A stretch of 64,000 bases of DNA from Octopus vulgaris (lineage: Eukaryota). Position 1 is the first letter of the stretch, and every line of letters starts with the position of its first letter. The translations under genes and the position numbers were made by a program. The stretch is from assembly GCA_951406725.2 (NCBI GenBank), contig OX597832.1, positions 56,358,001 to 56,422,000 of the forward strand, in the 5' to 3' direction. Shown piece after piece: positions 961 through 61,419 of this stretch. The notes beneath the pieces are model-generated. The model did no database searches. It was not told the DNA's origin and worked only from the letters and a program-made list of their open reading frames with translations.

Positions 961-1445
961 GTAAAGATTGCTTGCCAACATAACATGGCAGTCCTGGTTT
1001 AGGATGAATGTTGCTGTAATCAGCCCCAGGAGACATCGTCTCCAGTTAGCTATATTATATGATCTGTGTCCTTATATTTTTTCGAACAAGGGAATCTAGC
1101 ACCTGCACTCAGGGCAAAACAATATCTGTGTATTGCAATTTTCAGGTTATTTCCTTTCATCAGTACAGAATAATTGTTTGGCTAGAGGTGGCACTGCCAA
1201 ATTCCTGTTCGAAATATATAGTTTTCAAAGTGACAACTAGTCACTGACCTATAAATTAAAAACTAGGACATAGATTGTGTCATATAATATAAGGACACAG
1301 ATCATGTCAAATAACCAGCTGGAGACGATGTCTCCTGGGGCTAAATTACAGCAACATTTGTCCTAAACCAGAACTGCCATGTTATGTTGGCAAACAATCT
1401 TTACTCCAAAATACTGTAGCTGAATATCTCTCATTGTGAGATTTA
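961..1445. mobile_element. Penelope-like fold-back remnant (arms ~961-1077 / ~1287-1405) with a hammerhead-like motif in the spacer
   Basis: The arms are reverse complements (gtaaagattgcttgccaacataacatggcag... / ...ctgccatgttatgttggcaaacaatctttac). The right part resembles 12630-12785. Confidence 0.6.
1125..1169 (-). ncRNA. Hammerhead ribozyme-like motif (type I, minimal)
   Basis: Minus strand reads tctgta-CTGATGA-a-agg-aaataa-cct-GAAA-attgcaat-a-cacaga. Stem III region is palindromic (ATTGCAAT); one stem I mismatch and one extra A. Confidence 0.55.
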
Positions 1446-1829
1446 CAAATAGTAATTTTCTAAGAATTAATTAGTTTTAAACGAGTTCCAACAGTGCCAG
1501 AACTTTTATTTAGTCCACCACCACTACTATGGCTCCAACAACACCATGATTTTTATTTACAGTCCATGGCCACAATTAGTATAATTTATCACCCGCCTGT
1601 TTCAGTTGTTGATCCATCAAACTAGAGAAGTAGATGACTTTTGAGAAGTTTTAGTTGACTAATGAGTACCCAAAACCTCCTTGGAATTAAGGTAAACTCA
1701 ATACTAATATACTCTTGAATATCCTAGCTGATATTATACAATTTTCCTTGGAGTGGTCCTTGCCTGGTAGTGCAAACATTCTCATTATTAATTTGTCCTA
1801 TACTTTCCTTTATAAAGCTACAAGTGGGT

Positions 1830-2490
1830 TGTTTTTTTGTTTTTTGTTGCTCAATTTGCTTAGTATTCTACATGTATGACATTTTCCAATTAATAAACAC
1901 ATATTTATAACCAGAAAATTGTGCTTTGGAAATTTCTTCCTTTTAGCAACTGGCATTTTTAAGTTCTACTTTCAGAAAAATACCAACTAATTTTTGTTGT
2001 ACGAAGCTTAGACAGGCATTGAGTGACATATTTCCAAACTGTACTTGTTTATCAAACATCCTTGATCTATGGACTGCCTGATCCATACCTTCAACAAGTC
2101 TCAGTTGTATTAATTCATGTTCATTACCCAGCTTAACTATGGTTTTTATAATATCAAACCCAATTATAAAAGCCAAGCAAAATTTTTAAAATGATCTCAC
2201 ATGACTCTTGACACAGACACATAAACCAGCTTCATTCAGGAATGACCAACTTTTATTTTAGGTCACACATTATTCCATATAATCTACTGTATTCTCTGAA
2301 ACCCAAATGAACTACAGACCTTATTGTCAACCTTCCATAAAAATAAATTAACCTTCTTCAGACCACCAAGGTCATCACTATCTTTCAATTTCTTTCTTCA
2401 AGGTGGGAACTACAAAACATTATAACCATGTCTTATCAGGATCAGTAAGCGCCAATCAGGTATCCTACTGGCAATGCCATTTGTTGAGGA
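1830..2490 (-). mobile_element. Highly decayed CR1/L2-like LINE RT C-terminal fragment
   Basis: Broken minus-strand frames give WSEE, VVHLGFR and KTIVK in the order expected for the CR1-type WSxxW...KCxVLHxG...LYKxLVRP region; many stops and frameshifts. Confidence 0.3.
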
Positions 2491-2747
2491 AATATTAATT
2501 GATAACAATTCTTTCTACCATAGGCACAAAGCTGAAATTTTAGGGAGGAGAGTTAGTCGATGACATCGACTCCAGTACTTCAAACTGCTGCGGGTTAAGG
2601 GACACTTTGACTACAGCTGTAGTCCTTCCAGTCTTCTTAGCCACCTGTTACATACTGTTCAGACACCTATATTGCTAGATACACAGCTCAGAGGAGGAGA
2701 TATCATTCATACTAAGGTTTATATATATATATATATATATATATATA

Positions 2748-3375
2748 TAAAATTAATCAAAGGACATACTAGGTATGTCAACCTGCTTGAAATAACAGTC
2801 AAAACTCTTATTATTAAATCACCGAAAAATACACCGGTGAAAAACTACAGAAATCAAACGAAGGCAAAATCAGGTTAAGATAATCTACTAACATACATTT
2901 AAGTATTAGGACTCACGTGGATCGATTTCTGCATTGAAAAGACCTTAGCTTCTTCAGCACGTGTTACCATTATTCAGTTGCAACACAGACTTCGAAGCGA
3001 TGGGTTGGGAGTCTCTAATAATGGTAACACGTGCTGAAGAAGCTAAGGTCTTTACCAATGCAGAAATCGATCCATGTGAGTCCTAATACTTAAATGTATG
3101 TTAGTAGATTATCTTAACCTGATTTCGCCTTCGTTTGATTTCTGTAGTTTTTCACCAGTGTATTTTTCGGCGATTTAATAAGAGTTTTGACTGTTATTTC
3201 AAGCAGGTTGACATACCTAGTATGTCCTTTGATTAATTTTAATCCCTCAGCTATTTAATGCTATTTTTTGGCCTGCTATCGCCTGTGTCATTGATTCTGT
3301 TATTATCATTTTTAAAATTGTTATCTTGGATAATAATAGAATTAATGACACCTTCGTAAATTAATTTTTGGTGAA
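2748..3375. mobile_element. Penelope-like fold-back element in (TA)n; ~225-bp inverted arms 2748-2974 / 3017-3241 plus unique tail
   Basis: Near-perfect reverse complementarity of the arms. Each arm has cacgtg-CTGAAGA...GAAA-tcgatc-cayGTG (plus 3028-3078; minus 2914-2963) with palindromic ATCGAT; stem II is weak. Confidence 0.7.
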
Positions 3376-3385
3376 ATATATATAT

Positions 3386-58900: not shown

Positions 58901-59279
58901 AAACTGAAAGAAGCCTGTCGTATATATGTTTACATATATGTGTGAGTGTGTGTTTGTCCCCCCCAACATCGCTTGACAACCGATGCTGGTGTGTTTACGT
59001 CCCCGTCACTTAGCGATTCGGCAAAAGTGACCGATAGAATAAGCACTGGGCTTACAAAGAATAGGTCCCGGGGTCGATTTGCTCGAATAAAAGGCGGTGC
59101 TCCAGCATGGCCGCAGTCAAATGACTGAAACAAGTAAATGAGTAAAAGAGAGAGTATATATATATATATATATACACACACACACACACATATATATATA
59201 CGTGTGTGTGCGTGTATGTATATGTATGTATATGTACACACACACACACACACACAGGTAGGTATGTAGCATTGTAGGC

Positions 59280-59780
59280 AGCTAATGAGGTAGTCTTTCC
59301 GTCGTCACGTGTAGCTCGAATAGAAGCCATGCTGCACACACGTTCTACAGTTACATAAACATAATTAGCGGGGAGATTATTGTGTTTAAGCCAAGTAAAT
59401 ATAGACACACACACACCATCAGATCACACATTCCTGACATCATCTCTCCGCTTTTTTTTCTTTTTTTTTTTTGTTTTTTGTTTTTTTCAACGAACCGAAA
59501 CAAACACAATTAGTTACGAGACGAAGCACACACACACACACACATCGCCAATTTGCTGCGACCAAGCTTTCGTAATCACCGACTAGGTTGGTCAAGCTAG
59601 TGGGGGCGGTTAACCGACCCCAGGTTGTTCGCTTGCATTAAGGGGTTAACACACGAGTATTTATAGGTGTTGTAAATGTATAATACTATGCAGGGAAGGC
59701 TTTTATTATTGTTGTTGTTGTTTTTTCTGTCTTCGTTTCTCTGCGAGAAAGCATCGTCTCTAAGAAATGCCGCAACTGTG
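59280..59780. promoter_or_regulatory. CpG-rich unique region, possible promoter or enhancer
   Basis: gtcacgtg, gggggcgg GC box, tctctgcgaga, many intact CpGs. Confidence 0.3.
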
Positions 59781-60027
59781 TATTGAAATAAATTCTACCG
59801 TTGTTTTTTTGGGTTTTATTACTGTTACAGACATCTATGAGGCAGCAGACACATGTATTTGACAGATGTAATTTTACATACACTCACACATACAACACAC
59901 ACATACACACACACACACACACATCAACAGTAGATACTCGTATGTGCTTGGCTATATATATCTATATTTGTACATTTACACAAACACATACACACATATT
60001 AAATACGCATACACACACACAAACACA

Positions 60028-60540
60028 GATAGATAGATAGATAGATAGATAGATAGATAGATAGATAGATAGATAGATAGATAGATAGATAGATAGATAG
60101 ATAGATAGATAGATAGATAGATAGATAGATAGATAGATAGATAGATAGATAGATAGATAGATAGATAGATAGATAGATAGATAGGTAGGTAGGTAGGTAG
60201 ATAGATAGATAGGTAGATAGAGAGAGAGAGATAGGTAGGTAGATAGAGAGAGGTAGGTAGGTAGGTAGGTAGGTAGATAGATAGATAGAGAGAGATAGGT
60301 AGGTAGATAGATAGAGAGAGATAGGTAGGTAGATAGATAGAGAGAGAGAGAGATAGGTAGGTAGATAGATAGATAAAGAGAGAGAGGTAGGTAGGTAGGT
60401 AGATAGATAGGTAGGTAGGTAGATAGATAGGTAGGTAGGTAGAGAGAGAGAGAGGTAGATAGGTAGATAGATAGATAGACAGTCAGAAAGAAAGAAAGAT
60501 AGCTGGATAGATAGATAGAAACATACATACATACATACAT
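60028..60540. repeat. (GATA)n/(GGTA)n microsatellite (also 58552-58622)
   Basis: Visible directly. Confidence 0.95.
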
Positions 60541-61419
60541 ATAGATGTTCTTAAAGAATAGAGTCGGAAATTATTTAGTGCGCCAAAAGCCGGAATTTTT
60601 GCATGTATATGTATGTATTAAGCAGCGGAATTTATGAATTGAATAAAAGAATATTTCACTTTGATTTATTTTCGAACAATTTTTCTGAATTATGTTACGC
60701 ATATTTTTGAAAAGTTATAATGTCAGAGAACTTAAACATAAATCTGACAAAATGTTTTCTGTAAAATAACTAAAAACCGAAAAATACCAGGAAAAAAAGT
60801 AAGTGAATGAGGTAACCACCCACTACAGTCCATCCCATTTTTTTTTTTTGTTTTTAATTACTATACATTTATTTCCAGAACAGTAAATGTTCGGTCATTA
60901 AAACATACACATCCAACGAAATTGCAGTTTTTAGCGCAATAGATAACTTTCGTCTCTATTGTGCGCGCATGCGTGTGTGTGTGAGAGAGAGAGAGAGAAA
61001 TAGATATACAAACGCATACCCAATATATATATATATATATATATATATATATACTTAAACATATCAAAAGGAAACATTTAAACATGTGTTTAAATGTACA
61101 TTATATATATATATATATATATATATATATATATATATATATATATACACATATATATACATTTCTCTCTGTGTATCTTTCTGTTGAAGAGCGTAGGCTC
61201 GAAACGTTAAAGACTTGTTTTATTTATATTTCCTGAGCGCCATACTAATACAATTGTTTGTTTGTTTTCCACCTGCCTTCGTCTTTTGTCTATTTTCATA
61301 AAGCTTCCCGTTATATATATGCGTGCATGTATGTATCCACACACACACATATATATACTTACACACACACACATATATATACTCACACACACATATATGC
61401 ATGCATACATACATGCATG

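Follow-up and report, generated by a model that had tools for sequence, protein, structure and literature searches.

What do the hammerhead ribozyme motifs that recur in a 64,000-nucleotide stretch of the Octopus vulgaris genome represent (GCA_951406725.2, contig OX597832.1, positions 56,358,001-56,422,000; the whole stretch is called the window hereafter, and window coordinates start at its first letter)? An initial annotation of this DNA had named 12 such sites and proposed a large, diverse mobilome of Penelope-like elements (PLEs) and retrozymes. We find that the motifs are, as judged from their sequences, dispersed members of eight families (F1-F8) of PLE-type elements and their non-coding derivatives; the presence of many hammerhead families in PLEs and retrozymes is a phenomenon already described. 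Most probably they are minimal hammerheads of type I that mark the 3' ends of PLEs and of non-coding derivatives and would cut tandem transcripts as dimers. Cutting would be slow and would yield unit-length RNAs, to be copied back into the genome by the PLE reverse transcriptase (RT).

Eight families of hammerhead-bearing repeats

All 12 sites of the initial annotation carry the order stem I, core, stem II, GAAA, palindrome or near-palindrome, UH and stem I, and their coordinates and strands were correct. A strict scanner for type I motifs (perfect core, stem I of ≥4 bp, stem II of ≥3 bp) returned 5 matches in the window, where local dinucleotide shuffles (12 in number) averaged 0.08. With one core mismatch allowed, the figures were 10 and 1.08. 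The motifs thus exceed chance. The scanner located a further complete motif at 40738-40825(+), and profile searches added decayed or truncated copies at ∼3483, 20043, 32796, 39126-39228, 53610-53680 and 55729-55905. A scanner match at 14497-14551, for which no related copy was found, was treated as chance. Rfam, at its gathering score, reported no hammerhead in the window or in six loci with good copies, and no hammerhead was among the best 150 of 337 matches by E-value.

Similarity searches for each family gave 612-2,692 first-look candidates, of which 40 were scored and 30 fetched; the fetched sets are biased toward copies resembling each query. By comparison with the fetched loci, ∼63% of the window is repeat. 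About seven families had been counted; we distinguish eight, with the 16779 site separate from those at 36834 and 61176. The core had been given as CUGAnGA throughout, and 5 of the 12 sites depart from this: four by core letters (CCGAnGA at 3423 and 16779, CUGUnGA at 36834 and 61176) and the 26882 site by a broken stem II next to an intact core. CUGAnGA is the majority state in F1, F2, F6, F7 and older F3 copies, and not in F5 (A6U) or in F8, F4 and young F3 copies (U4C). The diversity of stem III palindromes stood, and some of the quoted letters did not: the 40569 site reads ACGATTGT and not ACGATCGT, the palindrome is ACAT in both the 26882 and 27352 copies, and ATTGCAAT at 1125 is CpG-decayed and one of several palindrome states in F1. 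The family members in the window are the following.

952-1290, minus strand: F1, part of a 350-353 nt monomer; hammerhead 1125-1169 with canonical core and A.G at 10.1/11.1, decayed
1286-1413, plus strand: F1, inverted 5'-truncated fragment without hammerhead, 88% identical to 952-1078
2748-3241, both strands: F2, back-to-back inverted pair; hammerheads 2914-2963(-) and 3028-3078(+), palindrome ATCGAT
3382-3637, both strands: F3, young subfamily, inverted pair; hammerhead 3423-3481(-) with U4C core, plus arm beginning inside stem II
12515-12790, plus strand: F4, homologous to F1 and part of a 352-353 nt monomer; hammerhead 12562-12606
16706-16912, plus strand: F8, ∼215 nt with a (TA)n end; U4C-core hammerhead 16779-16813, ACGT palindrome
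19962-20114, plus strand: F6, truncated decayed copy with a different 5' head
26829-27133, minus strand: F6 element; tRNA-like head 27057-27133, (AAT)n spacer, decayed hammerhead 26882-26927
27138-27450, plus strand: F6, inverted partner with head mostly deleted; hammerhead 27352-27397, ACGT decayed to ACAT
32768-32907, plus strand: F5, decayed copy
36788-36961, plus strand: F5, flanked by (TA)n runs; A6U-core hammerhead 36834-36869, ACGT palindrome
39044-39345, both strands: F3, inverted pair of the older subfamily; canonical-core hammerhead 39242-39302(+) and a partial copy 39126-39228(-)
40533-40860, both strands: F7, inverted pair arranged back to back; hammerheads with a long stem II at 40569-40656(-) and 40738-40825(+)
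53546-53680, minus strand: F5, decayed copy
55691-56005, both strands: F7, sister subfamily, inverted pair with both arms truncated before the first core half; carries ACGATCGT
61131-61320, plus strand: F5, other subfamily (N7 = U); hammerhead 61176-61213 with A6U core

F3, F7 and F5 lie at the 3' ends of autonomous Penelope-like elements

Three families, F3, F5 and F7, are joined to PLE open reading frames, as expected from the proposed mobilome. The young F3 copy in the window shares 92-94% identity with an intact 2.58-kb unit (locus L519), where two head-to-tail units of 2,579 and 2,580 nt are 99.96% identical and carry one hammerhead each. The unit contains a 717-amino acid frame (frameshifted in the second unit) with RWK, DKT, YKDD, CxCX5C and GIY-YIG motifs, and the hammerhead is located ∼190 nt past its stop codon. 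The F3 parent would accordingly be named a Hydra-clade-like PLE. Of 30 long F7 copies, 9, the query locus among them, have a same-strand endonuclease frame ∼1 kb upstream, and locus L396 contains RT and DKT pieces; F7 appears to be the 3' untranslated end of a decayed Hydra-clade-like PLE. For F5, loci L417 and L418 align from a frame with CX4CXXC and GIY-YIG through a pyrimidine-rich tail to the hammerhead, which points to F5 as the 3' end of a Neptune-like element. Loci L404 and L424 also have frames upstream of F5; as these do not run on into it, they were left out of the count. A homology search returned 559 homologues, almost all unnamed, and since Pfam gave no significant match, these clade names rest on motifs.

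Other PLEs were encountered in the same searches. One very young Neptune-like element (L391:2263-6198 on contig C17, and L331-L360) has a 1,312-amino acid open frame and 10,234 candidates; of the 150 matches scored, 75 do not differ from the query piece. Another young PLE family (L367, L372 and related loci) has 781-amino acid frames and many identical GIY-YIG pieces; the scanner found no hammerhead within 1.5 kb downstream of them. In locus L365, a hammerhead-like core with U4C is enclosed by a perfect stem I of 37 bp, and its palindrome is that of F3.

The families share an insertion pattern. Copies are mostly 5'-truncated and often back-to-back inverted: a second copy, mostly in this arrangement, accompanies 15/30 F6, 14/30 F3, 11/30 F1 and 7/30 F7 loci. 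Inverted back-to-back insertion has been described for PLEs (PMC4209133, PMC8557442, cited here, like most sources below, from the parts of their text available to us). Ends in (TA)n characterize six of the eight families: runs of (TA)5 or longer lie downstream of F8 (29/30), F5 (25/30), F2 (22/30), F3 (21/30), F7 (21/30) and F4 (14/30), compared with a background of 20%. An extra base after A9 and a G10.1-C11.1 pair occur together in F5, F6 and F8, and F3 has G-C at 10.1/11.1 and a bulge in stem II. All six inverted pairs in the window are predicted to fold back (68-95% paired), and same-sense partners of the window copies are kilobases away or decayed. As they have no same-sense neighbor or fold back on their own antisense arm, the window copies, solitary or inverted, are most likely inert.

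The families are abundant genome-wide

Whole-genome counts were obtained with exact patterns, for which a reversed-pattern control gave 0 matches, and are lower bounds. They amount to 332 copies for F1, 53 for F2, 6,081 for F3, 247 for F4, 15,730 for F5 (with U6), 5,346 for F6, 11,695 for F8 and 1,414 for F7 (5' half only), or at least 40,898 for the eight families together, with forward and reverse copies balanced. A generic six-base-palindrome pattern for the total count proved too noisy (4,244 versus 1,412 in the reversed control) and was discarded. Density was estimated from forty 10-kb stretches at round coordinates (400 kb), in which we found 36 motifs, 7 of them in one tandem array; the same rule finds 9 in the window, and three shuffles gave 0, 1 and 3. 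The resulting 72-90 motifs per Mb correspond to 2.0-2.5 × 10^5 motifs in the 2.80-Gb genome, with a 95% interval of 1.4-2.9 × 10^5 when the array is left out, and to 1.3 × 10^5 (0.8-2.1 × 10^5) when only perfect cores outside the array are counted. The very many motifs anticipated by the initial annotation are thus borne out, at ∼1-3 × 10^5 by extrapolation. The window, at ∼140 motifs per Mb, has ∼1.5 times the density of the sample and is ordinary for its genome. In ∼2 Mb of fetched DNA we distinguished 225 motifs in 34 clusters.

Counts made elsewhere with other descriptors are ∼4,000 motifs in coelacanth and 9,000 in Xenopus (PMC4209133), more than 6,000 in 16 families in a coral, and up to 120,000 retrozymes in axolotl (PMC7229834). 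For a squid genome, 235 Rfam hammerheads are listed in the part of the source available (PMC6962438). Because Rfam misses all window motifs, hammerhead counts for such genomes are likely to be large underestimates.

F6 joins a tRNA-like head to a Penelope-type hammerhead

The F6 hammerhead is a typical minimal hammerhead. A head with A-box and B-box stands at the 5' end in 12 of 60 F6 loci; among 210 loci from the seven remaining families, none has it. ARAGORN made no tRNA call on the heads in 6 loci and Rfam gave no tRNA match; at relaxed settings, ARAGORN called tRNA-Ser in some heads, alongside much noise. The tRNA-like head may drive transcription of F6, and a PLE may mobilize it; no autonomous partner with a common 3' end was found among 30 GIY-YIG loci or 60 F6 loci. 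The searches made returned no literature on a tRNA short interspersed element (SINE) moved by a PLE. At 19900-19962 and in L483, the F6 hammerhead module stands behind a second, different 5' head, which suggests that the 3' module is common to two SINE-like families. F8 is related to F5 downstream.

F1, F4 and F2 resemble retrozymes

The retrozyme part of the proposed mobilome also stood, for two families: F1 and F4 form tandem monomers of 350-353 nt and fit the retrozyme pattern, in which every unit of 170-400 nt in a tandem array has its own type I hammerhead. Tandem F1 units are found in loci L044 (three units), L038 and L055, and a 9-unit array on contig C2 is among the 247 F4 copies. The monomers are circularly permuted, with upstream sequence repeating the downstream part at a period of 350-353 nt. 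They contain no long frame, and no PLE frame is continuous with them; GIY-YIG frames near F4 in L008/L025 and L009 were rejected as parents, as they have hammerheads of their own and F4 lies in the adjacent (TA)n run. GC contents of F1 and F4 are 38% and 42%, 61% of the bases are paired, and the fold z-scores are -4.3 and -4.8 (30 dinucleotide-block shuffles). F2 wraps round at 466-476 nt in L074, L088 and L069, giving a monomer of ∼470 nt.

A ninth, young family of 359 nt (F9), homologous to F1 and F4, came from the random sample outside the window. F1, F4 and F9 are collinear at 52-58% identity, with fold z-scores of about -4.3 to -4.8. At L241:2100-4700 (contig C1, 20.00 Mb) and in L311-L330, F9 has a fully canonical core and up to five same-sense units plus inverted arms. 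On these features, F9 appears to be the best candidate for work on cleavage and circular RNA.

F1, F2 and F4 may circularize like retrozymes. Alternatively, they could be short derivatives of PLE terminal repeats, amplified as linear tandem transcripts or as minisatellites, a reading that we consider possible and give the smaller share of our belief. They share with PLE insertions the 5' truncation and the inverted arm, and retrozymes have been derived from PLE terminal repeats with satellite-type growth allowed (10.64898/2026.07.22.740005, available text). On the other hand, a unit of 350-359 nt has been kept across three families that are only 52-58% alike, and the cut-site flanks are predicted to pair, as in the circle-forming 350-390 nt retrozymes of mussel (PMC7229834).

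Altered catalytic cores in the most abundant families

Of 16,332 exact F5 cores, 15,730 have U at position 6; in the other 602 the letter is mostly C, as later mutation would produce. All four letters occur at position 7, each tied to subfamily flanks, which implies that U6 persisted over several waves. In F8 (76 of the first 100 listed cores), F4 and F3, most copies have U4C, which is also the state of the intact F3 units. C4 copies are less diverged than U4 copies (median nearest-neighbor values of 0.034 and 0.063 in F8, 0.016 and 0.094 in F4, and 0.023 and 0.069 in F3, with 5-21 copies per group), a contrast that CpG decay of C4 could inflate. CpG decay elsewhere in the same patterns falls far short of the number of U4 copies, which also have flanks of their own, and U4C appears to mark a younger lineage in three families, including the intact tandem F3 PLE. 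The F4 copy in the window has U4 (family majority U4C; C.A or C.U at 10.1/11.1). We considered and rejected CpG decay as its origin: among the first 100 F4 cores listed, U4 occurs in about one-third and goes with one subfamily letter, a share far above CpG decay at other sites. A further change, A9C, is found in 37 of 37 fetched copies of the 3' hammerhead-like motif of the young 1,312-amino acid Neptune-like PLE.

U4C and A6C reduce activity, U.U at 10.1/11.1 is tolerated, and U4C is a natural variant that keeps viroid infectivity (PMC3088659). By analogy, the U4C and A6U changes of the commonest families are likely to slow self-cutting and need not abolish it. The A6U variant was not met in our literature searches, and Lunse et al. 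2016 may list it. One may ask instead whether the hammerheads of the abundant families are catalytically dead or dispensable, and are kept as a fold (a site for PLE-protein binding or dimerization) or by descent. The prevalence of U6 in F5, U4C in F8 and in intact F3 units, and the A9C of a very young element all speak for this, as does the spread of Naiads without hammerheads (PMC8557442, available text). Against it, the free position 7 varies by subfamily while the other core letters, the stems and the palindrome are kept, as expected of a hammerhead fold still under selection, and the viroid variant shows that U4C can be carried by an infectious RNA. We therefore hold a dead hammerhead to be doubtful, and slow cutting of tandem transcripts as dimers remains our preferred reading.

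The role of the PLE hammerhead is still debated: scissors for unit-length RNA, passenger or structural signal. This genome offers matched natural pairs (U4 versus C4 in F3, F4 and F8, an intact tandem PLE, and a fixed A6U family with four subfamilies), which make the question directly testable and supply a ready panel for homo- versus heterodimer cleavage. We tentatively put forward a broader picture, which has less than even standing in our own judgment, in which the most successful elements repeatedly fixed weakened cores (U4C in three separate lineages, A6U in the largest family, A9C in a very young Neptune-like family) and kept fold and palindrome. The motif would then act less as fast scissors than as a signal for slow timing or for protein loading, few known genomes would be as rich in hammerheads, and a tRNA-headed SINE would travel on a PLE hammerhead end.

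The stem III palindrome and stem I in dimer formation

We assessed the fold with the palindrome left out of motif selection. In 12 multi-member clusters, Watson-Crick pairs occupy 30 of the 35 inner positions of stem III, compared with an expectation of 9.1 and a maximum of 19 in 5,000 shuffles; the F3 palindrome has a one-base center. Because individual copies decay, covariation is expected between subfamilies. The F2 palindrome switches between ATCGAT and ACCGGT by double change (19 and 9 copies), and between F1 and F4/F9 both partners have changed in 4 of the 6 inner pairs of stem I, a result from three lineages only.

In a type I dimer, the 5' half of each hammerhead would come from one copy, and the UH and 3' strand of stem I from the other. 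By this topology, stem I pairs across copies too, and two same-sense motifs would pair through palindrome and stem I, both forming the specificity code. In a pairing matrix of 11 motif types, with energies taken as stacking sums without tertiary contacts, the homodimer is strongest in 9 of 11; the exceptions lie in the F9 row and in F2b, for which the homodimer and the pairing with F9 are nearly tied. F2b and F9, which both have ACCGGT and compatible stem I sequences, pair with -19.9 and -23.1 kcal/mol compared with -23.0 and -20.5 kcal/mol for the homodimers. Cross-pairing of F5 with F8 amounts to -6.6 compared with -9.2, and F2a pairs more weakly with F2b of its own family. F5, F6 and F8 are set apart by stem I alone.

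The initial annotation had proposed that palindrome diversity could restrict dimer cleavage to members of the same family. The palindromes are, on this sequence evidence, under selection, yet they are no family barcode by themselves, and the proposed filter is incomplete. That the palindrome alone limits cleavage in this way is improbable: their diversity and selection and the strength of most homodimers favor such a barcode, but ACGT is common to F5, F6 and F8, F2 has two palindromes, F2b and F9 are compatible, F5 and F8 cross-pair, and stem I also forms across copies. A leaky two-part code of stem I and palindrome is plausible from the modeled energies.

Observations that weigh against dimer cleavage and Penelope-type mobility

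Several observations weigh against our proposal of PLE-type elements whose tandem transcripts are cut as dimers. Cleavage, circles and transcript ends are predicted from sequence, not observed, and in a Xenopus test 1 of 9 retrozyme dimers was cleaved (10.64898/2026.07.22.740005, available text). Pfam searches of neighboring frames gave only sub-threshold GIY-YIG matches, and no match to the RT pieces. No parent frame was found for F8, F6, F1, F2 and F4, and 30 GIY-YIG loci contained no same-strand parent for these five families. F1 (0/30) and F6 (2/30) do not end in (TA)n; F1, F2, F4 and F7 have a mismatch in place of the G10.1-C11.1 pair; and no F2 array with two same-sense hammerheads was present among 30 loci. 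F5 has no A6 in its majority core and, by analogy with the low activity of A6C (PMC3088659), may cut poorly.

An apparent host transcript and other features of the window

We compared contigs from runs guessed to be RNA over 900-17700; such contigs show no ends, strand or level. They contain variants of F1, F3 and F4, and they outline one exon-like segment.

9694-9852, minus strand: apparent first exon of a host transcript; 1.6-kb contigs of X1, X6 and X8 end here, next to a GTAAGT donor

This suggests a host transcript heading toward F3, F2 and F1, which would lie in introns if the next exon is below 952. The earlier idea that the motifs fall into introns finds this one apparent exon in its favor, and no further exon or gene identification. 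No host gene was identified by Pfam (18 candidate segments), by two longer-protein searches, in the PDB or in Atlas, and inspection of 30 kb of neighboring DNA revealed no next exon or host gene; several exon-like frames are putative. Intronic cleavage by the window copies is unlikely, because the inverted pairs are predicted to fold back and same-sense partners are far or decayed. Co-option of the motifs by the host as intronic cleavage signals has very little to recommend it: an apparent host exon and the conserved intronic hammerheads of amniotes (PMC6155905, available text) are set against window copies that are ordinary, in several cases decayed, members of dispersed families, strand counts balanced genome-wide, inverted pairs predicted to lock the motif and a window density ∼1.5 times that of the genome sample.

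Adjacent to the apparent exon is a GC-richer unique stretch (10139-11677) with contig depth at 10437-10997; the 9694-11677 area is possibly a bidirectional promoter region. At 33765-33880(+), a short exon-like frame follows a good splice acceptor, and its homolog search was empty. About 15 copies of a very abundant tRNA-headed SINE-like repeat (families D11-D20) are spread over both strands, for example at 11818-12212, 22162-22556, 33259-33669 and 43147-43560. A perfect inverted repeat of ∼230-270 nt at 40227-40501, similar to a miniature inverted-repeat transposable element and without a hammerhead, adjoins the F7 pair. Segments at 54878-55615(-), 24147-24605(+) and 24866-25225(-) resemble, respectively, the RT of an RTE-type long interspersed element, an AP endonuclease and a mariner transposase.

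Comparison with known hammerhead elements

Our literature searches returned no paper on hammerheads in octopus repeats, and the available text of a 2026 octopus repeat paper contains 0 occurrences of "hammerhead" or "ribozyme" (PMC13282606); Lunse et al. 2016 may already list the variants. Specialists could make use of three results: the non-canonical cores that are fixed in the largest families, F6 with its tRNA-like head, and the high motif density.

The motifs resemble the minimal hammerheads of metazoan PLEs (PMC4209133) in being type I, with a stem I of 4-6 bp and a short palindromic helix III, in the many families per genome with mostly single truncated copies and opposite-strand pairs 100-700 bp apart, in the extra base after A9 (F5, F6 and F8) and in their location in PLE terminal repeats (F3, F5 and F7). 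They differ in number (∼2,000-9,000 motifs per genome with another descriptor compared with at least 40,898 exact copies and an estimated 1-3 × 10^5 here), in the dominance of U4C and A6U, where the text available of that study names only a U3-A8 variant, and in the mismatch of F1, F2, F4 and F7 at 10.1/11.1. The small PLE hammerheads of Lunse, Weinberg and Breaker 2016 are likewise described as having a reduced stem III and a dimer mechanism (per the text of PMC6765202).

Like the PLEs of the Hydra clade (PMC8557442), the F3 parent is shorter than 3 kb, has a single frame with RWK, DKT and CxCX5C and, at its C terminus, GIY-YIG, uses (TA)n targets and carries a 3' hammerhead, and the F7 parent has DKT and CxCX5C pieces. 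The F5 parent resembles the Neptune clade of the same study in its CX4CXXC linker before GIY-YIG. The core of young F3 copies (U4C) and that of F5 (A6U) set them apart from these clades, in which they are placed by motifs.

With the non-LTR retrozymes (PMC7229834; 10.64898/2026.07.22.740005), F1, F4 and F9 share non-coding units of 350-359 nt with one type I hammerhead each, arrays from dimers to 9-mers, self-pairing and the company of autonomous PLEs. The weakened core of most F4 copies and the ∼470 nt of F2 differ from them, and circles are in our case a prediction; the available text of the vertebrate survey (10.64898/2026.07.22.740005) covers a range outside which a genome of the octopus kind falls. 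Finally, F6 is comparable with the schistosome elements SM-alpha and Sj-alpha (PMC6765202) in joining a polymerase III-type head with A-box and B-box to a hammerhead. SM-alpha, in the text available, is tandem with a canonical hammerhead, whereas F6 is dispersed, occurs in inverted pairs and has its hammerhead, minimal and of PLE type, close to the 3' end.

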